Below, in pieces: positions 1-63,819 of a stretch of DNA of 64,000 nt. A program made the position numbers and the translations under genes. Position 1 is the stretch's first letter; each line of letters starts with the position of its first letter. Source of the stretch: Escherichia phage 215Ecol030PP; sequence record PP328843.1, one strand, 5' to 3'. The notes below the pieces were generated by a model. The model ran no database searches. It had not been told where the DNA came from and saw nothing but the letters and a program-made list of their open reading frames with translations.

Positions 1-3130
<3,130 letters not shown>

Positions 3131-3158
3131 TATTAAAGCATATTAAAGAGGATTAAAA

Positions 3159-5138
3159 ATGACTTTATTATCTCCGGGCATTGAGCTCAAAGAAACTACG
3201 GTTCAAAGCACCGTGGTTAATAACTCTACTGGTACAGCAGCTTTGGCCGGTAAATTCCAGTGGGGTCCTGCTTTTCAGATTAAACAGGTTACAAATGAAG
3301 TAGATTTAGTTAATACTTTTGGTCAACCAACCGCTGAAACTGCTGACTATTTTATGTCTGCGATGAATTTCTTGCAGTACGGAAATGACTTACGAGTAGT
3401 TCGTGCTGTTGATAGAGATACCGCTAAAAACTCATCTCCGATTGCCGGTAATATTGAATACACAATTTCTACCCCAGGTAGTAACTACGCAGTTGGAGAT
3501 AAAATCACGGTCAAATATGTTTCAGATGCTATTGAAACTGAAGGTAAAATTACTGAAGTAGACGTAGATGGAAAAATTAAGAAAATTAATATTCCTACTG
3601 CAAAAATTATCGCTAAAGCTAAAGAAGTCGGTGAATATCCAGCACTAGGTTCTAACTGGACTGCGGAAATTTCTTCATCTTCCTCTGGTTTAGCTGCAGT
3701 AATAACTCTTGGAAAAATTATTACTGATTCTGGTATTTTATTAGCTGAAATTGAAAATGCTGAAGCTGCTATGACAGAGGTTGGCTTTCAAGCAAATCTC
3801 GAAAAATACGGAATTCCAGGAGTAGTAGCGCTTTATCCAGGCGAATTAGGCGATAAAATTGAAATTGAAATCGTATCTAAAGCTGACTATGCAAAAGGAG
3901 CTTCTGCATTACTCCCAATTTATCCAGGTGGTGGTACTCGTGCATCTACTGCTAAAGCAGTGTTTGGATATGGACCACAAACTGATTCACAGTACGCTAT
4001 TATAGTTCGTCGTAATGATGCTATTGTTCAAAGCGTTGTTCTTTCAACTAAGCGTGGTGAAAAAGATATTTACGATAGTAACATCTATATCGATGACTTT
4101 TTCGCAAAAGGTGGTTCAGAATATATTTTTGCAACTGCACAAAACTGGCCAGAAGGCTTCTCTGGAATTTTAACTCTGTCTGGTGGATTATCATCAAATG
4201 CTGAAGTAACAGCAGGAGATTTGATGGAAGCTTGGGACTTCTTTGCTGACCGTGAATCCGTTGATGTTCAATTGTTTATTGCGGGTTCTTGTGCCGGTGA
4301 ATCTTTAGAAACAGCATCTACTGTCCAAAAACACGTCGTTTCAATTGGGGATGCTCGCCAAGATTGCTTAGTATTGTGCTCTCCTCCGCGTGAAACTGTA
4401 GTTGGAATTCCTGTAACTCGTGCTGTTGATAACTTAGTCAATTGGAGAACCGCAACAGGTTCATACACTGATAATAACTTTAATATCAGTTCAACCTACG
4501 CAGCAATTGATGGTAACTACAAGTATCAGTATGACAAATATAATGATGTGAATCGTTGGGTTCCATTAGCAGCTGATATTGCTGGTTTATGCGCAAGAAC
4601 TGATAACGTATCTCAGACTTGGATGTCTCCAGCTGGTTATAATCGTGGCCAAATTTTGAACGTTATTAAACTGGCTATTGAAACTCGCCAAGCTCAGCGC
4701 GACCGTTTATACCAAGAAGCTATCAACCCGGTAACTGGTACAGGTGGTGATGGTTACGTATTGTATGGTGATAAAACAGCTACTTCTGTTCCTTCTCCGT
4801 TTGATCGTATTAACGTTCGTCGTCTGTTTAATATGTTGAAAACGAATATCGGACGTAGTTCAAAATATCGTTTGTTCGAATTAAACAACGCGTTTACTCG
4901 TTCATCATTCCGCACAGAAACTGCCCAGTACTTACAGGGAATTAAAGCTCTCGGTGGAATTTATGAATATCGTGTAGTTTGCGATACAACAAATAACACT
5001 CCGTCAGTAATTGATAGAAATGAGTTTGTTGCAACATTCTACATCCAACCTGCGCGCAGTATAAATTATATCCAACTTAACTTCGTTGCGACTGCTACTG
5101 GTGCAGATTTCGATGAGTTAACTGGTCTTGCAGGTTAA
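3159..5138 (+). CDS. 18: contractile tail sheath protein gp18
   Basis: 659 aa ORF preceded by TATAAATA late promoter; T4 gp18 size and position. Confidence 0.95.
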   Translation: MTLLSPGIELKETTVQSTVVNNSTGTAALAGKFQWGPAFQIKQVTNEVDLVNTFGQPTAETADYFMSAMNFLQYGNDLRVVRAVDRDTAKNSSPIAGNIEYTISTPGSNYAVGDKITVKYVSDAIETEGKITEVDVDGKIKKINIPTAKIIAKAKEVGEYPALGSNWTAEISSSSSGLAAVITLGKIITDSGILLAEIENAEAAMTEVGFQANLEKYGIPGVVALYPGELGDKIEIEIVSKADYAKGASALLPIYPGGGTRASTAKAVFGYGPQTDSQYAIIVRRNDAIVQSVVLSTKRGEKDIYDSNIYIDDFFAKGGSEYIFATAQNWPEGFSGILTLSGGLSSNAEVTAGDLMEAWDFFADRESVDVQLFIAGSCAGESLETASTVQKHVVSIGDARQDCLVLCSPPRETVVGIPVTRAVDNLVNWRTATGSYTDNNFNISSTYAAIDGNYKYQYDKYNDVNRWVPLAADIAGLCARTDNVSQTWMSPAGYNRGQILNVIKLAIETRQAQRDRLYQEAINPVTGTGGDGYVLYGDKTATSVPSPFDRINVRRLFNMLKTNIGRSSKYRLFELNNAFTRSSFRTETAQYLQGIKALGGIYEYRVVCDTTNNTPSVIDRNEFVATFYIQPARSINYIQLNFVATATGADFDELTGLAG

Positions 5139-5154
5139 TACGGTGCATTCTAAA

Positions 5155-5172
5155 GGCCTGTTTCGGCAGGCC
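5155..5172 (+). terminator. stem-loop after gene 18
   Basis: GGCCTG-TTTCGG-CAGGCC inverted repeat. Confidence 0.4.
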
Positions 5173-5173
5173 A

Positions 5174-5181
5174 TATAAATA
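5174..5181 (+). promoter_or_regulatory. late promoter TATAAATA (first of two) upstream of gene 19
   Basis: Exact TATAAATA right after a hairpin. Confidence 0.5.
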
Positions 5182-5232
5182 CACTATATCCTTAATTCTT
5201 TAATTCTATATGCCCTAGGTTAAACATAGGGA

Positions 5233-5240
5233 TATAAATA
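5233..5240 (+). promoter_or_regulatory. late promoter TATAAATA (second) upstream of gene 19
   Basis: Exact TATAAATA 15 nt upstream of ATG. Confidence 0.55.
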
Positions 5241-5254
5241 CTACAGAGGCTAAT

Positions 5255-5746
5255 ATGTTTGTAGATGATGTAACACGAGCGTTTGAATCTGGTGATTTTG
5301 CTCGACCTAACTTATTCCAAGTAGAAATTTCTTATCTTGGACAAAATTTTACGTTTCAATGTAAAGCCACTGCTTTACCAGCTGGTATTGTAGAAAAAAT
5401 TCCAGTCGGATTTATGAACCGTAAAATTAACGTAGCAGGTGATCGTACATTCGATGACTGGACTGTTACAGTAATGAACGATGAAGCTCATGATGCTCGT
5501 CAGAAGTTCGTTGATTGGCAAAGCATTGCTGCGGGGCAAGGAAACGAAATTACTGGTGGAAAACCTGCAGAGTATAAAAAGAGCGCTATCGTTCGTCAAT
5601 ATGCTCGTGACGCTAAAACAGTAACAAAAGAAATTGAAATTAAAGGTCTGTGGCCTACTAACGTGGGTGAACTTCAATTAGATTGGGATTCAAACAATGA
5701 AATCCAAACATTTGAAGTAACTCTTGCTCTCGATTATTGGGAATAA
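5255..5746 (+). CDS. 19: tail tube protein gp19
   Basis: 163 aa ORF, two TATAAATA motifs upstream. Confidence 0.93.
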   Translation: MFVDDVTRAFESGDFARPNLFQVEISYLGQNFTFQCKATALPAGIVEKIPVGFMNRKINVAGDRTFDDWTVTVMNDEAHDARQKFVDWQSIAAGQGNEITGGKPAEYKKSAIVRQYARDAKTVTKEIEIKGLWPTNVGELQLDWDSNNEIQTFEVTLALDYWE

Positions 5747-5751
5747 AATGA

Positions 5752-5769
5752 ATGGGGAGAAATCCCCAT
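5752..5769 (+). terminator. stem-loop after gene 19 (GAAA tetraloop)
   Basis: TGGGGA-GAAA-TCCCCA. Confidence 0.4.
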
Positions 5770-5778
5770 CCTGCTTAA

Positions 5779-7403
<1,625 letters not shown>

Positions 7404-7404
<1 letters not shown>

Positions 7405-7643
7405 TGGAAGGTTTAATTGAAGCTATTAAATCAAACGACCTCGTAGCCGCTCGTAAATTATTTGCTGAAGCCATGGCTGCAAGAACGACTGATTTAATTA
7501 AAGAAGAAAAAATCGCTATCGCTCGTAATTTCTTAATCGAAGGTGAAGAACCTGATGACGAGGATGATGACGAAGACGAAGATAGTGATGATAAAGACGA
7601 CAAAAAAGACAAAGACTCTGACGAAGACGAGGATGATGAATAA
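7404..7643 (+). CDS. 67: prohead core protein gp67 with poly-acidic C-terminal tail
   Basis: 79 aa, ATGA overlap with gene 20 stop; C-terminus almost entirely D/E. Confidence 0.85.
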
Positions 7644-8068
7644 TGCTTCTGATCCCTGAAACTCATGAATTAGTTCTCGAGAATGTCGAAGCACTTATTC
7701 CTGAAGCACAGGGTCGCTTTGACGAATTGTCTTCTGCTTTAAATAAAGACGATATAAATACAATTGTCGAGAATATGCTTGATGATGAAACTGATTTAGC
7801 GGTTGCATTAGCTTCTATTAATGAAAATATGCCGTTAAATGAATTTATCGTTAAACATGTTTCTGCCCGTGGTGAAATTACTCGCACTAAAGATCGCAAA
7901 ACCCGCGAACGTAATGCATTTCAAACTACCGGGTTGTCTAAAGCAAAACGTAGACAAATTGCTCGTAAAGCTACCAAAACGAAGATTGCCAATCCAGCAG
8001 GTCAATCTCGTGCTCAGCGTAAGCGTAAAAAAGCTCTTAAACGCCGTAAAGCATTAGGATTAAGCTAA
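7643..8068 (+). CDS. 68: prohead core protein gp68
   Basis: 141 aa, basic C-terminus, ATGA overlap with gene 67. Confidence 0.85.
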
Positions 8069-8706
8069 TGAATGAACCCCAATTACTAATTGAAACTTGG
8101 GGTCAACCTGGCGAAATTATTGATGGCGTACCAATGCTTGAATCTCATGATGGAAAAGACTTAGGTTTAAAACCGGGTTTATACATCGAAGGAATATTCA
8201 TGCAAGCGGAAGTCGTCAATAGAAATAAACGTCTTTATCCAAAACGTATATTAGAAAAAGCGGTAAAAGACTATATTAATGAGCAAGTTTTAACTAAACA
8301 AGCTCTCGGAGAATTAAATCATCCTCCACGCGCTAATGTTGACCCGATGCAAGCCGCTATCATTATAGAAGATATGTGGTGGAAAGGAAATGACGTATAC
8401 GGACGAGCTCGTGTTATTGAAGGTGACCATGGTCCTGGAGATAAATTAGCAGCTAATATTCGTGCCGGATGGATTCCAGGAGTTTCTTCTCGTGGATTAG
8501 GTTCATTGACTGACACAAATAAAGGTTATCGTATCGTAAACGAAGGATTCAAATTAACTGTAGGTGTTGATGCAGTATGGGGTCCAAGTGCTCCAGATGC
8601 ATGGGTAACTCCTAAGGAAATTACCGAATCACAGACGGCGGAAGCCGATACAAGTGCCGATGACGCCTATATGGCTCTCGCAGAGGCCATGAAAAAAGCG
8701 TTATAA
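8068..8706 (+). CDS. 21: prohead core protease gp21
   Basis: 212 aa, position between 68 and 22. Confidence 0.93.
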   Translation: MNEPQLLIETWGQPGEIIDGVPMLESHDGKDLGLKPGLYIEGIFMQAEVVNRNKRLYPKRILEKAVKDYINEQVLTKQALGELNHPPRANVDPMQAAIIIEDMWWKGNDVYGRARVIEGDHGPGDKLAANIRAGWIPGVSSRGLGSLTDTNKGYRIVNEGFKLTVGVDAVWGPSAPDAWVTPKEITESQTAEADTSADDAYMALAEAMKKAL

Positions 8707-8709
8707 ATA
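8702..8709 (+). promoter_or_regulatory. late promoter TATAAATA for gene 22
   Basis: Exact motif overlapping gene 21 stop. Confidence 0.55.
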
Positions 8710-8736
8710 TTATTATCTAAACAACAGGACTACAAA

Positions 8737-9546
8737 ATGCTTAAAGAACAACTGATTGCCGAAGCGCAGAAAATTGATGCTTCCGTTGCTCTTGATAGTA
8801 TTTTCGAATCAGTTAATATTTCTCCGGAAGCAAAAGAAACTTTCGGCACTGTATTCGAAGCTACCGTCAAGCAGCACGCCGTTAAATTAGCTGAATCTCA
8901 TATCGCTAAAATTGCTGAAAAAGCAGAAGAAGAAGTAGAAAAAAATAAAGAAGAAGCAGAAGAAAAAGCTGAGAAGAAAATCGCTGAGCAAGCTTCTAAA
9001 TTCCTTGACCATCTTGCAAAAGAATGGCTCACTGAAAATAAATTAGCAGTAGATAAAGGTATCAAAGCCGAACTGTTTGAATCCATGCTTGGTGGATTGA
9101 AAGAGCTCTTTGTTGAACACAACGTTGTTGTTCCAGAAGAATCAGTTGATGTTGTAGCTGAAATGGAAGAAGAGCTGCAAGAACATAAAGAAGAATCAGC
9201 TCGTCTGTTCGAAGAACTCAATAAGCGTGACGCATATATCAATTATGTGCAGCGTGAAGTGGCATTGAGCGAAAGTACTAAAGATCTGACTGAGTCTCAA
9301 AAAGAAAAAGTCTCTGCTCTGGTCGAAGGTATGGATTATTCAGATGCATTCTCAAGTAAATTGAGTGCAATCGTAGAAATGGTGAAGAAATCTAATAAAG
9401 ATGAAAGCACTATTACTGAGAGTATAAATACTCCTGATACTGAAGCAGCCGGACTGAATTTCGTCACTGAAGCTGTAGAAGATAAAGCTGCACCTGGTGC
9501 AGAAGATATTGTAAGTGTATATGCGAAAGTCGCATCTCGTTTCTAA
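8737..9546 (+). CDS. 22: prohead core scaffold protein gp22
   Basis: 269 aa, highly charged coiled-coil-like sequence, late promoter upstream. Confidence 0.93.
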   Translation: MLKEQLIAEAQKIDASVALDSIFESVNISPEAKETFGTVFEATVKQHAVKLAESHIAKIAEKAEEEVEKNKEEAEEKAEKKIAEQASKFLDHLAKEWLTENKLAVDKGIKAELFESMLGGLKELFVEHNVVVPEESVDVVAEMEEELQEHKEESARLFEELNKRDAYINYVQREVALSESTKDLTESQKEKVSALVEGMDYSDAFSSKLSAIVEMVKKSNKDESTITESINTPDTEAAGLNFVTEAVEDKAAPGAEDIVSVYAKVASRF

Positions 9547-40223: not shown

Positions 40224-41811
<1,588 letters not shown>

Positions 41812-41819
41812 AATAAAAT

Positions 41820-41833
41820 GGGCCTTGCGGCCC
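41820..41833 (-). terminator. hairpin between nrdB and denA
   Basis: GGGCC-TTGC-GGCCC. Confidence 0.4.
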
Positions 41834-41838
41834 ACTCC

Positions 41839-42341
41839 TTAAAAGTATTTTTTAAAACTCATCATAACTTTATCATCAACATCATTATCAATCTGTGCAA
41901 CAAGGTAAGATGACAATTCTACTTCTTGTGGCGCAGATTGAACATTATCAGAATTAAGATATTCACGAATCCAAGGATATGGATGTTTAACCGGAGCATC
42001 GGTAATTGGGCATGGAAGACCACACTGCTTCATACGAGATACAGTTAAGTAATCAATAAAGCTCCACATGCTATTTGTATTTAATCCAGGAACATCTCCA
42101 TCTTTAAATAAATGAACTGCCCAATCTTTTTCTTGGCGGTTAACTTCCATGAAAATATCAACTGCTTCTTGTTCACACTCTTGAGCAATTTTAACCCATT
42201 GATCGCCATCAGTACCAGATTGAAGTTGACGAATAATATATTGGGTGCCTTTAAGGTGAAGCTGTTCATCGCGTGCAATGAACTTCATAATCTTGGCATT
42301 ACCTTCCATGATTTCCATATTCTTATGGAAGTTAAAGGTAC
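41839..42341 (-). CDS. nrdB: ribonucleotide reductase small subunit NrdB, exon 2
   Basis: Frame continues ...TFNFHKNMEIMEGNAKIM...; joins exon 1 in frame via codon T|GT (Cys). Confidence 0.85.
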
Positions 42342-42932
42342 CGTATGTTCGATTGAGCTCGCTAATTCTCAACCCGTTCTCTTATGAACTGCTGCATGTT
42401 ACCATGCAGTCCAGACTATATCACAATCCCGGAGGGATTCTCCCCATTTCGAGTCGCTTGACCCTACGTCCGAAGACTAGTCGTTGAACCTTGTTTTGCA
42501 ATTGTCGCCGTGCCATCGTTTATATGTTGATGGTGATAAATCTTTCTTATCACAATATGGACAATTCAATTGAATTCTATTTGGATTTAATTTACATCTG
42601 TCATTATGTTTTAGATAAAATCCAGGACCTTTACCAATGTGACCGCAGAAATCACATGTGATTTCTTTTTGTGCAGGATGGGTCCCGTTCTTAACCATTT
42701 CTAATGTTTTGCTGATGTTCTTTTCTTATGGTCTTCCATCAGAATCTTTAGGTATAGGTCCGTTAGCATCTATCCAAATTTTTCTATAGTTCAATTGTGC
42801 ATCCTCTTAAAAGTATAATCATATTATACTAATTAAAGGTGCAAGCAAAACCTTGGCTGCTAGTTTTCCATAAAGGACTTTCCAGCAATTAAAGGAGTTT
42901 TCGATAAACGTTACCGTTTAAAGGCGCATTTT
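42342..42932 (-). mobile_element. group I intron in nrdB with degenerate homing-endonuclease ORF
   Basis: In-frame stop right after exon 1; 3' region GACTGCATGGTAACATGCAG parallels td intron P7; splice sites placed after U (42933) and G (42342) restore a 1179-nt ORF. Confidence 0.75.
42477..42698 (-). pseudogene. truncated intron endonuclease remnant (I-TevIII-like)
   Basis: 73-codon ORF inside the nrdB intron with Cys/His cluster CDFCGH...CPYCDKK...HGDNC; too short for an intact endonuclease. Confidence 0.55.
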
Positions 42933-43608
42933 ACGCAAAAGATACATAAAAACGAATAGCTTCTAAGGCATTAATAACGTGCAAACAGAGGTAAAGAGAT
43001 TTCATTAAAGCACGTTTAGCTTCGGCTTCTTGTTTAATAGCTCGGTTTAAACGAAAGACGGCATCAGGAGATTCTTTAGCTAGTTCTACAAATTCTTTAG
43101 CATTTTCCCATTCACGGGTTTTAATCAGAACATCATCATAATAACGTCCAATTGATTCAGCACGTTTCATAATAGCTTCATCTAATACAATCTCATCAAA
43201 TACCTTCGATGGATCAGTATAAAGATTTCGCATGATATGAGTATATGAACGACTGTGAATAGTTTCACTAAAAGTCCATGTAGCAACCCATGTATCAAGA
43301 CTTGGGTCTGAAATTAATGACATAAGTACAGCAGACGGTGCACGGCCCTGAATGCTATCCAAAAGTGATTGATACTTCAGATTATTAGTAAAAATATCTT
43401 GCTGATATTGAGGAAGCTTATTAAACTGTGCAGCATCCATCATTAAGTTAACTTCTTCGGGACGCCAGAAAAAACTGATCTGCCGCTCAATGAGTTCTTC
43501 AAATACTCGATGTCGTTGAATATCATATCGAGCTAAACCTAATCCAGAACCAAAGAACATCGGTTCATTCAAAACATCAACAGGGGATGTATTAAAAACT
43601 GTACTCAT
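42933..43608 (-). CDS. nrdB: ribonucleotide reductase small subunit NrdB, exon 1
   Basis: N-terminal 225 aa ending ...LEAIRFYVSFA then intron. Confidence 0.88.
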
Positions 43609-43659
43609 AAATTTTCCTCTTAGTTAATAGTTAGTGACTCGTCCATGAGTCATATTATA

Positions 43660-45924
43660 TCATAATTTACAGGATGAACAATCTTCAGCTTTTGGAGTTT
43701 CTATTTCATAATCATCAGTACCAGAACCATCACGGGTATTATGATAATAGAAATTTTTAATGCCATAATACCATCCGTATAGCATGTCATCAATCATTAT
43801 TGACATTGGAACCTTGCCTTTAGGGAAGATTTGGGGGTCATAGTATGTATTCGCCGAAGCTGATTGACAAACCCATTTCAGCATAATAGCTACCTGCGTA
43901 AGATAAGGTTTATTACCTTTCTTAGCTAATTTCCATGTATAATCATAGAGGTCTATGTTATGCTCAATATTGGGCACGACTTGATTAAAGGAGCCCTCTT
44001 TTGATTCTTTAACAGAGACTGGTCCACGTGGAGGCTCGATACCGTTTGTACTGTTAGAAACTTGGGAAGATGACTCACATGGCATAAGTGCTGATAATGT
44101 GCTATTACGGATGCCAAAGAGCTTAAGGTCTTCCCGCAGCGCCGACCAGTCACAAACGTATTTTGGAGCTGCGATTTGGTCAATCTTTTTATTGTACCAG
44201 TCGATAGGTAGTTCGCCTCGAGACCAACGAGTGTCTGAATAATATTCGCAAGGTCCTTTTTCTTTGGCGAGCTTAATGGATGCTTTAATGAGTCCATACT
44301 GTAATCTCTCAAATAGTTCATGTGTTAAATCGTTAGCATCTTCATAAGAAGCAAAGTTACTTGCCAGCCAAGCTGCATAGTTAGTAACACCTACACCGAG
44401 GTTACGACGCTTTTTAGCTTTTTCTGCTTCAGGAACTGGATATCCTTGGTAATCCAACAGATTATCAAGAGCACGAACTTGAACTTCTGCCAATTCATTA
44501 ATTTTATCTTGGTCTTGCCAGTCAAAATTATCTAGTACGAATGCGCTAAGGGTACACAATCCAATTTCAGCATCAGGGCTATTCACATCATTTGTTGGAA
44601 TAGCAATTTCACAACACAAGTTACTCTGACGAATAGGTGCCTTTTCACGAATAAACGGAGTATAGTTATTCGTATTATCAATGAACTGTACATAAATCCT
44701 TGCTGTTCCTGAACGTTCAGTCATGAGCAATTCAAATAGTTCACGGGCTTTAATACGCTTTTTACGAATATTAGGGTCTTTTTCTGCTGCTTCGTATAAT
44801 TCACGGAAACGGTCTTGGTCTTTAAAATAAGAATAATAAAGCTCTCCACCCATTTCATGTGGACTGAACAAAGTAATGTAATCGTTCTTTCCAAATCGTT
44901 CCATCATCAAATCATTCAACTGAACACCATAATCCATATGACGGATGCGGTTTTCTTCTACGCCTTTGTTATTTTTCAAAACGAGAAGATTTTCAACTTC
45001 CAAATGCCAAATAGGATAATAAGCAGTAGCAGCGCCGCCACGAATTCCACCCTGTGAACATGATTTAACTGCAGTCTGAAAATGTTTCCAAAAAGGAATA
45101 ACACCAGTATGGCGTACTTCACCTGTGCCAATCTTAGAACCTTCAGCACGAATCATACCAACGTTAATACCAATTCCAGCGCGTTTAGAGATATATTCAA
45201 CAATTGAAGCAGAAGCCTTATTGATAGACTTCAGTGAATCGCCTGCCTCAATAACAACGCATGAACTAAACTGCCGAGTTGGAGTACGGCAACCAGCCAT
45301 AATAGGAGTTGGTAATGAAATCTGTCGAGTAGATACCGCTTCATAAAAACGGATAACATGTTTTAATCTATCAACAGGTTCATCTTGATGCAATGCCATT
45401 CCAATAGTCATAAATGCAAACTGTGGAGTTTCATAAATTTGACCAGTGGTTTTATCTTTAACTAGATATTTTTCTTTTAATTGCATCGCCCCGGAATAAG
45501 TAAATTCCATATCCCGCTCGTGCTTAATTTTTGATTCTAAAAATGTAATTTCTTCTGCTGAATATTTTGACAATAATTCAGGGTCATATTTACCTTCATT
45601 TACACAGTAAGAAATATGGTCAATAAATGAACGTGGTTCATATTGTCCGTAAACATGCTTACGAAGAGCAAACATTAAACAGCGTGCAGCTACATATTGA
45701 TAATCAGGCTCTTCAACCGAAATAGAATTCGCAGCAGCCTTAATGACAATAGTCTGAATATCATCAGTTGTCATTCCATCACGGAGATAAGATTTAATAT
45801 TTTCATATAATTCATAAGGATCTACTGATGTTCCCTCAGCTGCCCAAGATAAAACTTTAATAATTTTTTGTGGGTCAAAGCTCTGAGAAACACCACTACT
45901 TTTGATAACATTAATTAATTGCAT
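43660..45924 (-). CDS. nrdA: ribonucleotide reductase large subunit NrdA
   Basis: 754 aa, T4 NrdA size. Confidence 0.95.
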   Translation of the reverse strand: MQLINVIKSSGVSQSFDPQKIIKVLSWAAEGTSVDPYELYENIKSYLRDGMTTDDIQTIVIKAAANSISVEEPDYQYVAARCLMFALRKHVYGQYEPRSFIDHISYCVNEGKYDPELLSKYSAEEITFLESKIKHERDMEFTYSGAMQLKEKYLVKDKTTGQIYETPQFAFMTIGMALHQDEPVDRLKHVIRFYEAVSTRQISLPTPIMAGCRTPTRQFSSCVVIEAGDSLKSINKASASIVEYISKRAGIGINVGMIRAEGSKIGTGEVRHTGVIPFWKHFQTAVKSCSQGGIRGGAATAYYPIWHLEVENLLVLKNNKGVEENRIRHMDYGVQLNDLMMERFGKNDYITLFSPHEMGGELYYSYFKDQDRFRELYEAAEKDPNIRKKRIKARELFELLMTERSGTARIYVQFIDNTNNYTPFIREKAPIRQSNLCCEIAIPTNDVNSPDAEIGLCTLSAFVLDNFDWQDQDKINELAEVQVRALDNLLDYQGYPVPEAEKAKKRRNLGVGVTNYAAWLASNFASYEDANDLTHELFERLQYGLIKASIKLAKEKGPCEYYSDTRWSRGELPIDWYNKKIDQIAAPKYVCDWSALREDLKLFGIRNSTLSALMPCESSSQVSNSTNGIEPPRGPVSVKESKEGSFNQVVPNIEHNIDLYDYTWKLAKKGNKPYLTQVAIMLKWVCQSASANTYYDPQIFPKGKVPMSIMIDDMLYGWYYGIKNFYYHNTRDGSGTDDYEIETPKAEDCSSCKL

Positions 45925-46241
45925 AAGTCCTCAATTTGAAAATCGTCTTTAAACAGTCGGTTAACTATATGAGCTATTATATCACCATGACACGGCTTTG
46001 GTTTACATGTGCATCCTAGCCTCATTCCACGTAAAGGCTCTAAATGTGCTTTAGTTATTTCTCCGGATTTAATTCGACGTATAAAATCTTTTTTGAATAA
46101 TTCAATGGCAGCCTCCCGGCTGCCAGCATCTTTACCGACGTAATTCCCCCAAAATGTACCACGGTGAATATTAACATCAAAGTCGGATTTGTATTTATTC
46201 ACTACCCGGCATAGACGGCCCGCGCGGTGATAATTCGGCAT
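45915..46241 (-). CDS. hypothetical protein (nrdA.1 position)
   Basis: 108 aa ORF. Confidence 0.55.
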
Positions 46242-46458
46242 ATTGTTTTTCCGTTAAAACAGTAATATCGTAGTAACAGTCAGAAGAAGTTTTAACTGTG
46301 GAAATTTTATTATCAAAATACTCACGAGTCATTTTATGAGTATAATATTTTTTGCCATAAATGATAATAGGCTGATTTGGTCCTGGAACTTCTAACTCGC
46401 TTGGGTTAGGAAGTGTAAAAAGAACGGCACCAGAAGTATCTTTAAATCGTAAAATCAT
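46195..46458 (-). CDS. hypothetical protein (nrdA.2 position)
   Basis: 87 aa ORF. Confidence 0.5.
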
Positions 46459-46482
46459 ATATCCTCACAATTAATAAATTAA

Positions 46483-46794
46483 TTACACCGCCATTTTTCC
46501 TTTCAAGACACCATGGGACTGATAATCTTTGAGAACGAAATCTTTAGGCCTGAGTTTAAGAATGTATTCCAATTGTTCTTTAGTAGAAAGATAGCGGAAT
46601 TTATAAGGCAATCCGCCTATTACCAGTTCACAAAGCTCTTTAGGTTCACGACGCAAAATTTCTTTACATTGTTCCACGTGATTCATATAGATATGAGTAT
46701 TACCACCAGAAAATATCAAATCTCCTGGAATAAGATTACACATCTTAGCTACAATATGAACTAACGCAGCATATGATGCAATGTTGAATGGAAG
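46483..46794 (-). CDS. td: thymidylate synthase, exon 2
   Basis: Begins CTT CCA TTC AAC (LPFN...) right after intron-terminal G; 103 codons. Confidence 0.88.
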   Translation of the reverse strand, partial: LPFNIASYAALVHIVAKMCNLIPGDLIFSGGNTHIYMNHVEQCKEILRREPKELCELVIGGLPYKFRYLSTKEQLEYILKLRPKDFVLKDYQSHGVLKGKMAV

Positions 46795-47056
46795 CATTAT
46801 GTTCAGATAAGGTCGTTAATCTTATCCCGGAATTATATCCAGCTGCATGTCACCATGCAGAGCAGACTATATCTCCAACTTGTTAAAGCAAGTTGTCTAT
46901 CGTTTCGAGTCACTTGACCCTACTCCCTAAAGGGATAGTCGTTAGGCATTTAGGTAGAACCAAAGTCCTACAATTTAGCACGGGATTGTCTACTAGAGAG
47001 GTTCCCCGTTTAGATAGATTACAAGTATAAGTCACCTTATACTCAGGCCTCAATTA
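46795..47056 (-). other. group I self-splicing intron in td, 262 nt, no endonuclease ORF
   Basis: Starts UAAUUGAGGCCUGAGUAUAAGG... right after exon-1 GGU and ends ...CUGAACAUAAUG, as recalled for the T4 td intron; only a 16-nt loop where T4 carries I-TevI. Confidence 0.8.
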
Positions 47057-47746
47057 ACCCAAGAAAACATCTACTGAGCGTTGATACCACTGCAAATCCA
47101 AATAGCCATTACGCACATTAAACTGATAGAACATATGACAAGGCGGTAATGCCATATATTTAAGTTCAGCTGGATTCCATGCAGAAACAATTTGACGCCT
47201 ATCATTTGGCAATTTTTTAATACGATCAATAACTTCTACAATTTGGTCTACACCGCCAAAATCACGCCATTGTTTTCCATAAATTGGACCAAGTTCACCG
47301 CTATGGTATCCTAAATCTTTTGCTTGATTTTCGTAATTTTCATCCCAGACTGTTTTGCCTTGAATTAATGAATCATGCTGAATTTGGTCTACACCGCCAA
47401 AATCACGCCATTGTTTTCCATAAATTGGACCAAGTTCACCGCTATGGTATCCTAAATCTTTTGCTTGATTTTCGTAATTTTCATCCCAGACTGTTTTGCC
47501 TTGAATTAATGAATCATGCTGAATTAATCGTAAATCATTTACGTTAGTACTTCCTGATAAGAACCAAAGTAGCTCAGCAATGCAAGCTTTCCAAGCGAGC
47601 TTCTTAGTTGTTACCGCAGGAAAACCTTTAGTTAAATCCCAGCGTAATTTAGTACCGAACAAAGCAATTGTTCCTGTGCCTGTTCGGTCATCGGTTTCAT
47701 AGCCATTTTCAAAAATGTCTTTAATTAAATCTTGGTATTGTTTCAT
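47057..47746 (-). CDS. td: thymidylate synthase, exon 1, carrying an in-frame 47-codon tandem duplication
   Basis: 230 codons; IQHDSLIQGKTVWDENYENQAKDLGYHSGELGPIYGKQWRDFGGVDQ occurs twice in tandem. Confidence 0.88.
47241..47522 (-). repeat. exact 141-bp tandem duplication (2 copies) inside td exon 1
   Basis: Copy 1 at 47241-47381 and copy 2 at 47382-47522 read identical by eye; short AATT-type microhomology at the junction. Confidence 0.85.
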
Positions 47747-47790
47747 TTAGTACCTTATATAAATTATAATACATTTTATGAAGCTAATAA

Positions 47791-48138
47791 TCAATACGGT
47801 TTAGCATCAAATTTTCTTTCGATTTCAGGAGTGAAATATAATTCTTTACCGCGTTTGGAAAAGCGACCAATAATATGATAATTATTCTCATCAAACGTAA
47901 TATTACCAATATCCATAGCTTTCAACCAAATATCGATATTTCTATCCAGCTTTATGTCAAAATTCCAATACGGAGAACTATTACCGAAAATACTGCAAGC
48001 AGATTCAGTGAAACAACTGCTATAAATCTTGTCTTTAGGAACTACTAATTGATAGACACCTTTAATAAACTGAGGACCCTGCCACTTTGGCTGTTTCGCG
48101 TCTTCTTCTAATAGAATAGGGTAATAATTAAAGTTCAT
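47791..48138 (-). CDS. hypothetical protein inserted between frd and td
   Basis: ORF track begins at GTG 48150; ATG at 48138 gives 115 aa (MNFNYYPILLEEDAKQPK...). Confidence 0.55.
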   Translation of the reverse strand: MNFNYYPILLEEDAKQPKWQGPQFIKGVYQLVVPKDKIYSSCFTESACSIFGNSSPYWNFDIKLDRNIDIWLKAMDIGNITFDENNYHIIGRFSKRGKELYFTPEIERKFDAKPY

Positions 48139-48158
48139 ATTTTCCGCCACGCGTTATT

Positions 48159-48988
<830 letters not shown>

Positions 48989-48998
48989 ATTATTTTCC

Positions 48999-49241
48999 TT
49001 AAACAGACTTTTTCACAATTTTCCAATCAGCTTTAAACTGATCGACGTCAGAATGGTAAATCCAGAATCCTGCGCTTTCTCCGTCTTCATAAAGAGGACA
49101 TCCATCACATTCATCTTCCCATCCCATGTCACGTAAAAGATGTTCAGCTTTTTCAACAAGTTCAGAATCTTTACCGATGATATTAAAATACCATTTACCT
49201 CTAACTTCTGAATCTTTGATGCTCTGGCGTTGTAATCTCAT
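48999..49241 (-). CDS. hypothetical protein (frd.x cluster)
   Basis: ORF track begins at TTG 49298; ATG at 49241 with SD AAGGAGAA gives 80 aa; early promoter occupies 49262-49296. Confidence 0.5.
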   Translation of the reverse strand: MRLQRQSIKDSEVRGKWYFNIIGKDSELVEKAEHLLRDMGWEDECDGCPLYEDGESAGFWIYHSDVDQFKADWKIVKKSV

Positions 49242-57514: not shown

Positions 57515-58630
57515 ATGGAAAAATTTATGGCAGAGTTTGGACAAGGATATGTCCAAACGCCATTTTTATCGGAAAGTAATTCAGTAAGATACAAAATAAG
57601 TATAGCGGGTTCTTGCCCGCTTTCTACAGCAGGACCATATGTTAAATTTCAGGATAACCCTGTCGGAAATCAAACATTTAGCGCAGGTCTTCATTTAAGA
57701 GTTTTTGACCCTTCAACAGGAGCATTAGTTGATAGTAAGTCATATGCTTTTTCTACTTCAAATAATACTACATCAGCTGCTTTTGTTAGTTTCATGAATT
57801 CTTTGTCAAACAATAGACTTGTTGCTATACTAACTAGCGGAAAGGTTAATTTTCCTCCTGAAGTGGTATCTTGGTTAAGGGGAGCAGGAACTTCAGTTTT
57901 TCCATCAGATTCAGTATTGTCAAGATTTGACGTATCATATGCTGCTTTTTATACTTCTTCTAAAAGAGCTATTGCATTAGAGCATGTTAAACTAAGTAAT
58001 AGAAAAAGCACAGATGATTATCAAACTATTTTAGATGTTGTATTTGATAGTTTAGAAGACGTCGGAGCTACGGGATTTCCTAAAAGAACATATGAAAGTG
58101 TCGAGCAATTTATGTCAGCGGTTGGTGGAACTAATAACGAAATTGCGCGATTGCCAACTTCAGCTGCTATAAGTAAACTTTCTGACTATAATTTAATTCC
58201 TGGTGATGTTCTTTATCTTAAAGCACAGTTATATGCTGATGCTGATTTACTTGATCTTGGAACTACAAACATATCCATTCGTTTTTATGATGCATCAAAT
58301 GGATATATTTCCTCGACCCAAGCTGAGTTTACTGGGCAAGCTGGGTCTTGGGAATTAAAAGAAGACTATGTAGTTGTTCCAGAAAACGCCGTAGGATTTA
58401 CGATATATGCACAAAGAACTGCTCAAGCAGGTCAAGGCGGCATGAGAAATTTAAGTTTTTCTGAAGTATCAAGAAATGGCGGCATTTCAAAACCTGCCGA
58501 ATTTGGCGTCAACGGTATTCGCGTTAATTATGTCTGTGAATCGGCTTCACCTCCAGATATAATGGTACTTCCTACACAAGCCTCTTCTAAAACTGGCAAA
58601 GTGTTTGGACAGGAATTTAGAGAAGTTTAA
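57515..58630 (+). CDS. 35: long tail fibre hinge protein gp35
   Basis: 371 aa. Confidence 0.9.
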   Translation: MEKFMAEFGQGYVQTPFLSESNSVRYKISIAGSCPLSTAGPYVKFQDNPVGNQTFSAGLHLRVFDPSTGALVDSKSYAFSTSNNTTSAAFVSFMNSLSNNRLVAILTSGKVNFPPEVVSWLRGAGTSVFPSDSVLSRFDVSYAAFYTSSKRAIALEHVKLSNRKSTDDYQTILDVVFDSLEDVGATGFPKRTYESVEQFMSAVGGTNNEIARLPTSAAISKLSDYNLIPGDVLYLKAQLYADADLLDLGTTNISIRFYDASNGYISSTQAEFTGQAGSWELKEDYVVVPENAVGFTIYAQRTAQAGQGGMRNLSFSEVSRNGGISKPAEFGVNGIRVNYVCESASPPDIMVLPTQASSKTGKVFGQEFREV

Positions 58631-58692: not shown

Positions 58693-59343
58693 ATGGCTGA
58701 TTTAAAAGTAGGTTCAACTGTGGGTGGATCTGTCATTTGGCATCAAGGAAATTTTCCATTGAATTCAGCCGGTGACGATGTACTCTACAAATCATTTAAA
58801 ATATATTCAGAATATAATAAACCGCAGGCAGCTGATAACGATTTCGTTTCTAAAGCTAATGGTGGTACTTACACCGGTCCAATTACTATTAATTACGGGG
58901 TAAATAGTTATCTTCAATTAAGTAATAATGAAACCCCCATCCGAATTCGTTCTGGTGGCGGCACTGGTAATACTCTTGTAGTTGGTGGCTCTTCTGGCGG
59001 TATTAGTTTTAGACCAGCAGGTAGTGAAATCACTACTGGACAAATTACGATTACGCCAGAAGGTTTGACAACATTTACCAAAGCTGTAACGGCTCCATCT
59101 GTAACTGTTACATCTACTCCTTCCGCAGCATCTGATGTTACTCGTAAAGATTATGTTGATGGAGCAATAAATACTGTTACAGCAAATGCAAACTCTAGGG
59201 TATTACGCTCTGGAGACACTATGACAGGAAATTTAACTGCGCCAAACCTTTTTTCACAGAATCCTGCATCTCAACCTTCACACGTTCCACGATTTGACCA
59301 AATCGTAATGAAGGATTCTGTTCAAGATTTCGGCTATTATTAA
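58693..59343 (+). CDS. 36: long tail fibre distal connector gp36
   Basis: 216 aa, late promoter upstream. Confidence 0.9.
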
Positions 59344-59351
59344 GAGGACTT

Positions 59352-62297
59352 ATGGCTACTTTAAAACAAATACAATTTAAAAGAAGCAAAACTGCAGGTC
59401 AACGTCCTGCTGCTTCAGTATTAGCCGAAGGTGAATTGGCTATAAACTTAAAAGATAAAACAATTTTCACAAAAGATGACTCAGGTAGTGTTATAGAATT
59501 AGGTTTAAAATATGGAGGAACTATAAATGGGTCTTTAGAGGTTACAGAAAATATAACTGGAACTTTAATTGGAAATTCTAGCACAGCTACTAAATTGCAA
59601 ACACCTAGGAAAATTAATGGTATATCTTTTGATGGGTCAAAGGACATTACCTTAACTCCATCTGACATAAATGTCAATAGCACAACATTTATAAAAAATA
59701 ATGGCGAATTACCTGTTGATGCTAATTTAGATACGTATGGGCCTGTTGAAGAATATCTTGGAGTTTGGTCGAAAGCAACTTCAACCAACGCTCAACCAGC
59801 AAATAAATTTCCAGAAGAAAATGCTGTAGGTGTGCTAGAAGTATTTGTGGCCGGTCAATTTGCTGGTACTCAGAGATATACAACTAGATACGGAAATGTT
59901 TATATTCGTTCCTTGACTGCTACATGGAACGGAGTAAATGGTCCGTGGAGTGTGTGGCGAAATATTCAATCCGGTACTCGTCCACTGTCAACAACAATTG
60001 ATCTTAATGATCTAGGAGGCGCTGAACACCTTGGTTTGTGGCGAAATAGTTCAAATTCCATTGCTACCTTTGACAGAAATTTCCCAGAAGAGGGGTCGTC
60101 AGCTCAAGGTCTTTTGGAAGTATATGAAGGTGGAAACTATTCTCGTACACAAAGATATACAACCAGATTTGGTGTTGTATATACTCGTTGTCTTGCTGCC
60201 GCGTGGGATGCTTCCGCGCCTAAATGGGGACCGTGGCAACAAGTCGGTAATGTCACACCAGCGACTTTCTATGACGGAAACCTGAATGATTTTAAAACTC
60301 CTGGGTTATATAACATTTTAGGCACTGATGCCGTTATTAACTGTCCTACTGGTGAAGGTTTACCAGCCGTTATTGTTGGTTTGCTGGAAGTTAAACAGCG
60401 TGCTTCTGGTGGTGCTATTTTCCAAAAATTTACTACTGCCGGAACAGGTGCAACTACCCGCGATCGTATTTTTGAGCGCGCATATACCGGCGGTGTGTGG
60501 GGTGAATGGAACGAAGTATACACATCCTATTCTCTACCAATTACTTTGGGTATGGGCGGTATTAAATCTAACTTAGCTGAGTTAGACTGGCAAACCTTTG
60601 ATTTTGTCCCTGGTAGTATGTTTAGTGTTCCTTTGAACAAAATAAAGAACATGCCAGCTAATATGAATTGGGGCACGATTGACGGAAACTTAATTATGTT
60701 TTCTGTTGGTCCTAGCGAACATACTAGCACAGGGCGTACTGTTCAGGTTTGGCGCGGTACTGTATCCCAGACAAACTACCGTTATTTTGTCGTTCGTGTG
60801 TTCGGTAATTCTGGAAATAGAACTTGCACAGTCCGCCGTGTTGTTCTTGAAGACGGATCACATACTTGGACTGCTCAACAAAACTTTAGGGGATTGCTGA
60901 ATATCACTGCTGCTGTTAATCTTGGTGCTAATCAGAAAATTTCACTTGCTCCAGGAGCATATATTCAAGCCCCTGCTAGCGGTTCTGGTTCTAATACTTA
61001 CGCAAATCAGAATACTACCATTGCACCATTATATCAGGCCATTGACGATTCAAATAAAAACCAGTTTGCACCAATTGTTAAACAGAAAAACACTGTAAGT
61101 AATATCACCTTTGCCACTGGTATGGCTATAGGTACATCCGAATATAAGATCATTGCTCAGGGTGATTTATCCGCTAATGGAACAGCAGATGGGTTAAAAC
61201 AATGGACTTTCATGCCGTCAGGTTATTTTAAATCTCCAGGGCGTGTATATGTCGGTGATGCGTTCCTTAATACAGATGGTAATATTGCCGGTTCAATCTG
61301 GAAGAAATATAACAATGCGACAAATTTAGATGCTGCCTTGAATACTCGCGTAGGTAAAGGCGGTGATACGATGACAGGTCGGTTAACAATCAATGCACCT
61401 AATGATTCTATTGTATTATCAACAACTGCTAGTAATTCTTTGCATATTCGCGGTGACATAGACGGGACTGGTAACTGGTATATTGGCAAGGGTGGTGCTG
61501 ATAATTCGCTAGCATTTTATAGCTATGCTTCTCAGGCGGCAGTACATATCACAAACAATGGTGAGATTGCGTTAAACCCGCAAAATACCGCAATGGTTAA
61601 CGTTAACCGCGACCGTGTACACATTAACGGTTCTGGATGGATTGCTAGACAACCGGGTGATTGGGGCAACCAATGGCGAGTAGAAGCTCCATTATTCGTC
61701 GATCATGGTTATGTTTCACAGGATTGTTATTATCCTATTCTTAAAGCAAGAAGCGTTATAACCAATCAAGGATATAGCACCTCTGTTGACTTTGGTATGC
61801 GTCGTACTCCATCACAGTGGGGGCAAGCAATCATTCGTGTCGGATCCACGGAGGCTTCTCCTGATGCTGGACACCCACAAGCTGTGTTTGCATTCCATCA
61901 TGATGGATTCTTTTATACACCAGGAAATGGTAGCTTTAGCGATGTGTATATTCGTTCTGATGGTCGTCTTAAGATTAATAAAAAAGAGCTAGAAAACGGA
62001 GCGGTCGAAAAAGTTTGCCGACTGAAAGTTTATATTTACGATAAAGTTAAGTCTATTAAAGACCGTAGTGTTATTAAACGTGAAGTTGGTATTATTGCTC
62101 AGGATCTTGAAAAGGAATTACCGGAAGCTGTATCTAAAGTTGAAGTTGATGGATCTGATGTTCTGACAATTTCTAACTCTGCTGTGAATGCTCTTTTAAT
62201 TAAAGCTATTCAGGAAATGAGTGAGGAAATTAAAGAATTGAAAACGCCTCTCTTTACTAAAATTGCTCGCAAAATTAGTAAATATTTTAAATTCTAA
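59352..62297 (+). CDS. 37: long tail fibre distal subunit gp37 (T2-type, with C-terminal intramolecular chaperone domain)
   Basis: 981 aa; N-terminus [13 protein letters not shown] conserved; C-terminal 113 aa begin SDGRLK. Confidence 0.9.
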
Positions 62298-62302
62298 CAA
62301 CA

Positions 62303-62320
62303 AGGGGGAAATGCCCCCTT
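62303..62320 (+). terminator. stem-loop after gene 37
   Basis: AGGGGG-AAATG-CCCCCT between 37 stop and 38 start. Confidence 0.45.
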
Positions 62321-62333
62321 TGGAGTATAAATT

Positions 62334-63131
62334 ATGGCAGTAGTTGGAGTTCCTGGCTGGATTGGAAGTTCAGCCGTAAATGAAACAGGACAGCGCTGGA
62401 TGAGTCAAGCGGCTGGTCAATTAAGATTGGGTGTTCCTTGCTGGATGAGTCAATTTGCAGGTCGCTCACGAGAAATTATTCACACGCTTGGAGCAGACCA
62501 TAACTTCAATGGTCAATGGTTCCGAGATAGATGTTTTGAGGCAGGTAATGCACCTATAGTGTTTAATATTACAGGTGATTTAGTATCATATTCTAAAGAT
62601 GTTCCTTTATTCTTCATGTACGGAGATACACCAAATGAATATGTTCAGTTAAATATTATTGGCGCTCATATGTGGGGTAGAGGTGGACAAGGTGGATGGA
62701 CTCATTCCGGTGGAGATGGTAATGGACAACAAGGCGGGCATTGTATTCAAAACGACATTGGTGGACGATTAAGAATTAACAACGGTGGAGTAATTTGCGG
62801 TGGAGGTGGCGGTGGTGGCGGTATCGCTTATCGTCCTCACTCTGGCGCAAACTGGCAGGATATTGGTGGCGGTGGAGGAAGACCATTTGGCCCAGGAGGT
62901 GGCGGTGGTTATTCAGGAGGTGCTGCTTCTTATGACGGCCCAGGAGGTGGTTATAATTATGGTAATGCTCATTCTGGTCAGGGCGGTGATGCCGGAGGAA
63001 ATGGACAAAATGCCTGGTCTGATGGCGGTAAAGTACTAAAAGTCGGTGCAGGAGGAGCAGCAGGTTATGCTGTCATAGGATCTGCTCCAACTTGGCAAAA
63101 TGTTGGAGTAATATATGGTCCAAGAGTATAA
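62334..63131 (+). CDS. 38: gp38 receptor-binding adhesin with glycine-rich motifs (T2/S16 type)
   Basis: 265 aa; GGGGGGGG, GGGGG and GGGGG runs separated by variable segments. Confidence 0.85.
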
Positions 63132-63162: not shown

Positions 63163-63819
63163 ATGGCAGCACCTAGAATATCATTTTCGCCCTCTGATAT
63201 TCTATTTGGTGTTCTAGATCGCTTGTTCAAAGATAACGCTACCGGGAAAGTTCTTGCTTCCCGGGTAGCTGTCGTAATTCTTTTGTTTATGATGGCGATT
63301 GTTTGGTATAGGGGAGATAGTTTCTTTGAGTACTATAAGCAATCAAAGTATGAAACATACAGTGAAATTATTGAAAAGGAAAGAAATGCACGCTTTGAAT
63401 CTGTCGCCCTGGAACAACTCCAGATAGTTCACATATCATCTGAGGCAGACTTTAGTGCGGTGTATTCTTTCCGCCCTAAAAACTTAAACTATTTTGTTGA
63501 TATTATAGCATATGAAGGAAAATTACCTTCAACAATAAGTGAAAAATCACTTGGAGGATATCCTGTTGATAAAACTATGGATGAATATACAGTTCATTTA
63601 AATGGACGTCATTATTATTCCGACTCAAAATTTGCTTTTTTACCAACTAAAAAGCCTACTCCCGAAATAAACTACATGTACAGTTGTCCATATTTTAATT
63701 TGGATAATATCTATGCTGGAACGATAACCATGTACTGGTATAGAAATGATCATATAAGTAATGACCGCCTTGAATCAATATGTGCTCAGGCGGCCAGAAT
63801 ATTAGGAAGGGCTAAATAA
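63163..63819 (+). CDS. t: holin T
   Basis: 218 aa with one N-terminal transmembrane segment VAVVILLFMMAIVWY. Confidence 0.9.
   Translation: MAAPRISFSPSDILFGVLDRLFKDNATGKVLASRVAVVILLFMMAIVWYRGDSFFEYYKQSKYETYSEIIEKERNARFESVALEQLQIVHISSEADFSAVYSFRPKNLNYFVDIIAYEGKLPSTISEKSLGGYPVDKTMDEYTVHLNGRHYYSDSKFAFLPTKKPTPEINYMYSCPYFNLDNIYAGTITMYWYRNDHISNDRLESICAQAARILGRAK

Follow-up and report, generated by a model that had tools for sequence, protein, structure and literature searches.

The window analyzed here, a 64,000-nt stretch of DNA from Escherichia phage 215Ecol030PP, contains the tail fiber genes in the order 34-35-36-37-38-t, the same as in T4. Gene 38 (62334..63131), which starts with ATG and encodes 265 aa plus a stop codon, is identified from the ORF list and from matches to Pfam and the PDB as the gene for a tail fiber tip adhesin; a Shine-Dalgarno sequence, GGAG, can be read 8 nt 5' of the start codon (62322..62325; genes 37, 38 and t, and all features described within and between them, lie on the plus strand). 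Both the ORF and the three polyglycine runs that the original prediction had placed in its product are present, namely, GGGGGGGG at aa 156-163 (eight glycines; 62799..62822, with G157-G162 forming invariant alignment columns) and GGGGG at both aa 178-182 and aa 188-192. The architecture described in that prediction is correct with respect to these runs but incomplete: alignment with the homologs from T6, T2, S16, and PP01 resolves five glycine-rich motifs (GRMs) and four hypervariable segments (HVSs), the layout defined for gp38 by Trojet et al. (2011).

The N-terminal attachment domain (aa 1-48; 62334..62477), covered by the Gp38_N profile at aa 1-42, is predicted to dock on the tip of gp37 and belongs to the T6/AV121 allele, with 97.9% nucleotide identity to AV121 vs 56% to AV119. 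Its tryptophans W9, W22, and W37 are conserved in 90% or more of the 14 adhesins aligned, that of S16 among them, and N-terminal tryptophans of gp38 have been reported to insert into the gp37 tip (Salem et al. 2021; PMC7917993). The following conserved region (aa 49-108; 62478..62657) is nearly identical in most of the aligned relatives, with nucleotide identities of 98-100% to AV121, AV119, and ECML-123-2 and 74% to T6. The five GRMs and four HVSs make up the glycine-rich receptor-binding domain (aa 109-243; 62658..63062), which falls into the RB32/RB33/AV119 allele class. Within this domain, HVS1 (aa 122-133; 62697..62732), with boundaries read from the variable alignment columns, exceeds its counterparts in the Tsx-, OmpF-, FadL-, and OmpC-type alleles by five residues and is followed by HVS2 (aa 164-177; 62823..62864), HVS3 (aa 193-216; 62910..62981), and HVS4 (aa 223-239; 63000..63050). 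The C-terminal end of the protein, together with the stop codon (aa 244-265; 63063..63131), shows 94-100% nucleotide identity to AV121, AV119, ECML-123-2, and T6; a small C-terminal motif of gp38 is universally conserved (Trojet et al. 2011).

Glycine accounts for 26.4% of the residues of gp38 and for 40% within aa 109-243, compared with 4-11% in the neighboring gp34, gp35, gp36, gp37, and holin (t). Due to the GGN glycine codons, the DNA encoding aa 109-243 has the highest GC content of all 405-nt tiles across the 64-kb window (52.3%; the window averages 36.5%, with a 99th percentile of 46.4%), a peak that makes gene 38 findable from composition alone.

Two Pfam families cover the protein almost end to end: GP38 (PF05268; E = 4.4e-66, 223.3 bits) at aa 47-265, across profile positions 1-218 of 218, and Gp38_N (PF21721; E = 2.9e-20, 72.4 bits), in both cases far above the curated cutoff of 25 bits; no other family was matched in the Pfam scan. 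These profile scores rule out a chance ORF, and gene 38 is, on that basis, real. A sequence search against solved structures retrieved 9V85, the sfGFP-fused receptor-binding domain of PP01 gp38 (E = 3.5e-73), and 6F45 chain D, the gp38 of Salmonella phage S16 (E = 1.9e-50, aa 5-262), whereas BLASTP against T4 gp38 found no similarity (best E = 0.84). Judged by homology, gp38 of 215Ecol030PP is a full-length T2/T6/S16-type adhesin and not a T4-type chaperone. The identification as a T2-type adhesin in the original prediction, which could have been overturned by a homology search pointing to a T4-type chaperone, is thus borne out, and the length of 183 aa quoted there for T4 gp38 agrees with the T4 record.

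The protein is identical to WWT42815.1, annotated as "receptor-recognizing protein" of Escherichia phage 215Ecol030PP, and the gp37 encoded upstream, in the same genome of 168,660 bp, has the accession WWT42814.1. It belongs to a 90%-identity cluster of 132 sequences; tblastn detected relatives in 803 phage records, including 47 with 95-99% amino acid identity, with the best matches in ECML-123-2 (98.1%), PM105 (97.7%), and RB33 (96.6%). According to Trojet et al. (2011), this form of gp38, and not the T4 version, is the predominant adhesin in T4-type phages. A literature search found no paper naming phage 215Ecol030PP or its sisters. With the protein already deposited under the right name and the family well studied, gp38 is an ordinary and already known member.

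The distal half-fiber and the junction of genes 37 and 38

The similarity to T4 changes along the operon. Identity to the T4 counterparts is 92% for gp34 and 96% for gp35, the hinge protein encoded by gene 35 (57515-58630), and drops to 67% for gp36, in which the first 60 and the last ~70 residues are nearly identical to those of T4 and the middle is divergent. The divergence from T4 begins inside gene 36 (58693-59343), that is, within the hinge connector and 5' of gene 37. As a separate observation, aa 58-112 of gp35 match the Pfam family ILEI (PF15711, "Interleukin-like EMT inducer"; E = 5.4e-8, 33.7 bits, cutoff 27), an odd match for a tail fiber hinge protein.

The product of gene 37, a 981-aa ORF, is of the T6 type, with 91% identity to AV121 gp37 and 74% to T6 gp37. 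Alignment with T4 gp37 is confined to aa 1-64, at 75% identity, and a weakly similar (28%) central stretch; no significant alignment was found with aa 800-1026 of T4 gp37, the C-terminal tip region. The mature subunit of the distal half-fiber (aa 1-868; 59352..61955), which contains a match to Pfam gp37_trimer at aa 692-742, is followed by a putative C-terminal intramolecular chaperone (aa 869-981, 113 aa; 61956..62297) with a Peptidase_S74 match at aa 869-927. The motif DVYIR^SDGRLKI at aa 864-875 places the predicted cut after R868. The same motif in the fPS phages was aligned with the autocleavage site of S16 by Salem et al. (2021; PMC7917993), who concluded that the cut after DVYIR releases the intramolecular chaperone at the C-terminus and that the docking surface for gp38 is thereby exposed; the C-terminal part removed from S16 gp37 also comprises 113 residues, as predicted for 215Ecol030PP. 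Gene 38 is thus located directly after a gp37 ending in a predicted self-cleaving chaperone domain, as T2-type adhesins require.

Judging from these alignments, the entire distal half-fiber is of a common non-T4 kind, and the T4-like part of the fiber is only its proximal half (gp34 and gp35). The view that this gp38 sits in an otherwise T4-like operon therefore fits gp34 and gp35 but neither gp36 nor the T6-type gp37. We also discarded the possibility of a T4-like gp37 to which a foreign gp38 had been added, because gp37 itself is T6-type with a self-cleaving chaperone domain. Downstream, the boundary of the module is marked by gene t (63163..63819), encoding the holin (Pfam Phage_holin_T, E = 1.9e-117).

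Genes 37 and 38 are separated by 36 nt, in which lies a GC-rich hairpin, AGGGGG-AAAUG-CCCCCU (62303..62319), predicted by folding, with an energy of -14.8 kcal/mol for positions 62290-62340 and a z-score of only -1.75. At the hairpin site, a G-run and a C-run flank a short variable segment (AAAT, CTTT, TTCG) in AV121, ECML-123-2, T6, and AV119. The hairpin could affect mRNA stability or translational coupling. A role as a terminator was rejected, given that the z-score is insignificant alone and that the terminator scan yielded minus-strand matches only. Immediately before gene 38, the sequence TATAAAT (62326-62332) is close to the T4 late-promoter consensus TATAAATA; it was likewise rejected as a late promoter of gene 38, because it abuts the ATG and is absent from AV119, ECML-123-2, and T6, and its occurrence there is probably due to chance.

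Recombinant make-up of gene 38

Alignment of 2.5 kb around gene 38 with AV121, AV119, ECML-123-2, and T6 divides the gene into segments of different affinity. Over 40-64 kb, AV121 is the nearest genome (coverage 98%, identity 95.4%), and its nucleotide identity is 97-100% across the C-terminus of gp37, the spacer, and aa 1-108 of gp38. AV119, by comparison, shows 38-58% upstream of position 62478 and 100% over aa 49-108. Across the receptor-binding domain (aa 109-243), the relationship is reversed, with 49% identity to AV121 and 91% to both AV119 and ECML-123-2; over aa 244-265, it rises to 97% for AV121 and stands at 100% for AV119, and gene t is 98.9% identical to each. Read from this alignment, gene 38 is a clean recombinant of a T6/AV121-type docking domain and an AV119-type binding domain, in which the breakpoints fall in conserved sequence and the docking-domain allele is matched to its own gp37. 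Modular exchange of HVS blocks between T-even phages has been described and experimentally reproduced (Trojet et al. 2011), and the same exchange is seen in receptor-swap work from 2026, in which swapping gp38 alone changed the receptor in related phages.

Between the binding domains of 215Ecol030PP and AV119, there are 31 synonymous and 6 nonsynonymous differences (dN/dS 0.05, dS 0.39). These differences imply that the allele class is old and under purifying selection, and the comparison indicates that the AV119-like binding domain is a conserved functional allele. The other parts of the AV119 fiber tip are different: the docking allele of its gp38 is two residues shorter, matching a different gp37. 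This AV119 gp37, of 1104 aa, is much longer than that of 215Ecol030PP and very different from it (AV119 excerpt 2505-5819 vs 59352-62297), so that at least two unrelated fiber tips carry nearly identical OmpA-type binding modules. As a further side observation, the nrdB and thymidylate synthase genes of AV121 are each annotated in two pieces split by a homing endonuclease gene (excerpt 2340-4609 and 7483-9359); this region of AV121 corresponds to about 41800-49000 of the window, which aligned there in seven pieces, at 98% coverage.

Other members of the family differ from 215Ecol030PP to varying degrees. T6 and AV121, of the Tsx-binding class, have only 49-51% nucleotide identity over aa 109-243 and different HVS1-4 loops, although AV121 shares the docking domain and the gp37 C-terminus. 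PP01 (9V85) and S16 (6F45) retain the glycine motifs, the C-terminal end and, by homology, the polyglycine-rich domain, but all of their loops differ, identity is 66% for the PP01 receptor-binding domain and 50% for S16, and both bind OmpC. The gp38 of T2 (FadL/OmpF), which gave the class its name and occupies the same gene position, is only 49% identical (47.7% over aa 1-150), and T2 gp37 is far longer, at 1341 aa. In T4, the same slot between genes 37 and t is taken by the 183-aa tail fiber assembly chaperone, unrelated in sequence, and gp37 itself carries the receptor-binding tip.

Predicted receptor and rival readings

To predict the receptor, we aligned gp38 with adhesins for which the receptor is known from experiment: Tsx for T6 and Bas36, OmpA for FL20, OmpW for RB68, OmpF for Bas38 and Bas46, FadL for T2, and OmpC for S16 and PP01. 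The loops of gp38 match none of these nine adhesins. They do match those of AV119, ECML-123-2, KIT03, OMNI12, and MX01, a class that shares the longer HVS1, the sequence IAYR[P/V]HSGANWQDI in HVS2, and NAW[S/H/Y]DGGKVLKVG in HVS4; literature searching for the receptor of KIT03 produced nothing useful, and the paper on the Yersinia PYps2T group gives no receptor.

Two independent sets of experiments link this class to OmpA, each through a close relative. An ompA deletion mutant of MG1655 resists infection by AV119 (OR352949) and FL08, both of which infect strains with each of the eight OmpA variants examined; they are classified as "type 1" OmpA-binding phages (Lutz et al. 2025; PMC12032242). 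Over aa 49-265, gp38 of 215Ecol030PP is identical to that of AV119, with the same HVS1-4 loops including the extended HVS1, except for P168V, D201V, G202A, and N208Q, three of which (D201V, G202A, and N208Q) are in HVS3. In AV119, residues R165, V166, H167, S168, G169, A170, and D217 lie at an OmpA interface that was modeled with AlphaFold-multimer and molecular dynamics and is not a solved complex (PMC12032242). These predicted contacts map onto R167-A172 in HVS2 and onto D219, in the glycine-rich motif just upstream of HVS4; the OmpA-class residues R167, H169, S170, G171, A172, and D219 are all present, and P168, which takes the place of V166, is also found in KIT03.

The second relative, RB33 (KM607001), has the same T6-like N-terminal domain, and its binding domain differs only by N173K, G222A, and S229H. 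Infection by RB32 depends on OmpA and is affected by LPS composition, the gene 38 of RB33 is identical to that of RB32, and OmpA and LPS are also used by RB5 chimeras that carry the HVS block of RB32/33 (Trojet et al. 2011). P168, D201, G202, and N208 are common to RB33 and 215Ecol030PP. Thus, all four positions that differ from AV119 carry the RB33 residue, and the loops belong to the RB32/RB33/AV119 allele class, from which OmpA is predicted as the most likely receptor. We consider it probable that the primary receptor of 215Ecol030PP is OmpA, possibly with a contribution of the LPS core. A receptor assigned to RB33 in a genome-wide screen from 2026 was set aside, because the stock used differs from KM607001 according to its authors and behaves like T4 (OmpC).

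The KM607001 record itself shows an irregularity. Compared with positions 62334-63131 of the window, gene 38 in its excerpt 4001-4800 contains two surplus nucleotides, which lie upstream of excerpt position 4369 (around codons 109-122). The resulting frameshift explains why the CDS is annotated as only 147 aa, and the rest of the gene reads on in another frame with ~95% nucleotide identity to 215Ecol030PP. The frameshift probably reflects a sequencing error within the glycine-rich stretch, given that gene 38 of RB33 served as a functional donor in the work of Trojet et al. (2011).

The prediction of OmpA has to be weighed against the sensitivity of receptor choice to small changes. Three to four loop residues separate gp38 from each of the experimentally tested relatives, P168 is at a predicted OmpA contact position, and in RB51/RB68 a single HVS3 change, Q206L, switches the receptor from OmpF to OmpW, as shown in work from 2026. 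Close copies of the allele are, furthermore, carried by phages whose isolation hosts were E. coli O157:H7, Shigella, Yersinia pseudotuberculosis, and Salmonella. A T2-type adhesin directed by a few loop substitutions to a different receptor (Tsx, OmpC, OmpF, FadL, OmpW, or LPS alone) would accommodate these facts; yet RB33, which shares gene 38 with the OmpA-dependent RB32 (Trojet et al. 2011), has P168, D201, G202, and N208 throughout, and the OmpA-dependent AV119 has V, V, A, and Q there, so that both variants of all four positions occur in phages that use OmpA. Because the loops also share little with those of the Tsx, OmpF, OmpW, FadL, and OmpC classes, we regard a non-OmpA receptor as unlikely. 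A more tentative suggestion within the OmpA prediction is that P168, D201, G202, and N208, together with S229 and G222, constitute a sub-allele that widens or shifts the range of OmpA loop variants bound or that extends to the similar OmpA proteins of Yersinia, Shigella, or Salmonella; this is possible, although we doubt it.

Two other readings concern the nature of gp38 and the origin of the module rather than the receptor. Gene 38 occupies the T4 position, and older annotations of T6 gp38 read "distal long tail fiber assembly catalyst", as if gp38 were a T4-like chaperone for gp37 that is absent from the virion and leaves the choice of receptor to gp37. The lack of similarity to T4 gp38, the full-length membership in the adhesin family, the structures of homologs bound at the fiber tip, the gp37 with its own chaperone domain in place of a match to the T4 C-terminal tip, and the change of receptor upon swapping of gp38 alone make this reading wholly implausible. 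Nor is the gp37-gp38 module likely to be an unusual, recent import that makes the T4 backbone a rare mosaic, as the original prediction implied for the host-range module. The T4-like gp34 and gp35 next to a gp37 and gp38 that are not T4-like, and the sharp recombination boundaries at the receptor-binding segment, would fit such an import. However, the backbone is equally close to non-T4 Tequatrovirus genomes with the same kind of module (~95-96% nucleotide identity to AV121, PST, WilhelmHis, and others), the relatives in 803 phage records and the predominance of this form show that the combination is not unusual, and exchange of HVS blocks among T-even phages is described and experimentally reproducible. 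We therefore consider a rare import very improbable, and retain the reading of gp38 as an adhesin with OmpA as the probable receptor.

Proposed mechanism and implications

Taken together, the best explanation, to which we assign a probability of about 0.9, is that gene 38 of Tequatrovirus 215Ecol030PP encodes a standard T2/T6-type tail fiber tip adhesin. The mechanism outlined below draws on solved or experimentally tested homologs for the fold, the location in the virion, the cleavage, and the OmpA receptor. The 981-aa gp37 would trimerize assisted by the chaperone domain at its C-terminus (aa 869-981), which would then cut itself off after R868 in the DVYIR^SDGRLKI motif. One gp38 monomer would dock on the exposed tip of the gp37 trimer through aa 1-48, including W9, W22, and W37. 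By homology to the solved structures 9V85 and 6F45, we infer that aa 109-243 fold as a polyglycine-II sandwich, as in PP01 and S16, with the four HVS loops pointing away from the fiber at its distal end. The loops would bind an outer membrane protein, presumably through the OmpA loops, reversibly, and adsorption would start with this contact.

Gene 38 is a textbook host-range determinant and, within this window, matters little beyond annotation. Its sharp internal boundaries, on the other hand, make it a clean example of the known exchange of binding domains among T-even phages. Should the sub-allele suggestion hold, it would help to explain the occurrence of the allele class in phages isolated on four genera. 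The prediction of OmpA, perhaps with the LPS core, as the receptor may also be useful in the composition of phage cocktails, in which resistance through one receptor would not defeat all members.
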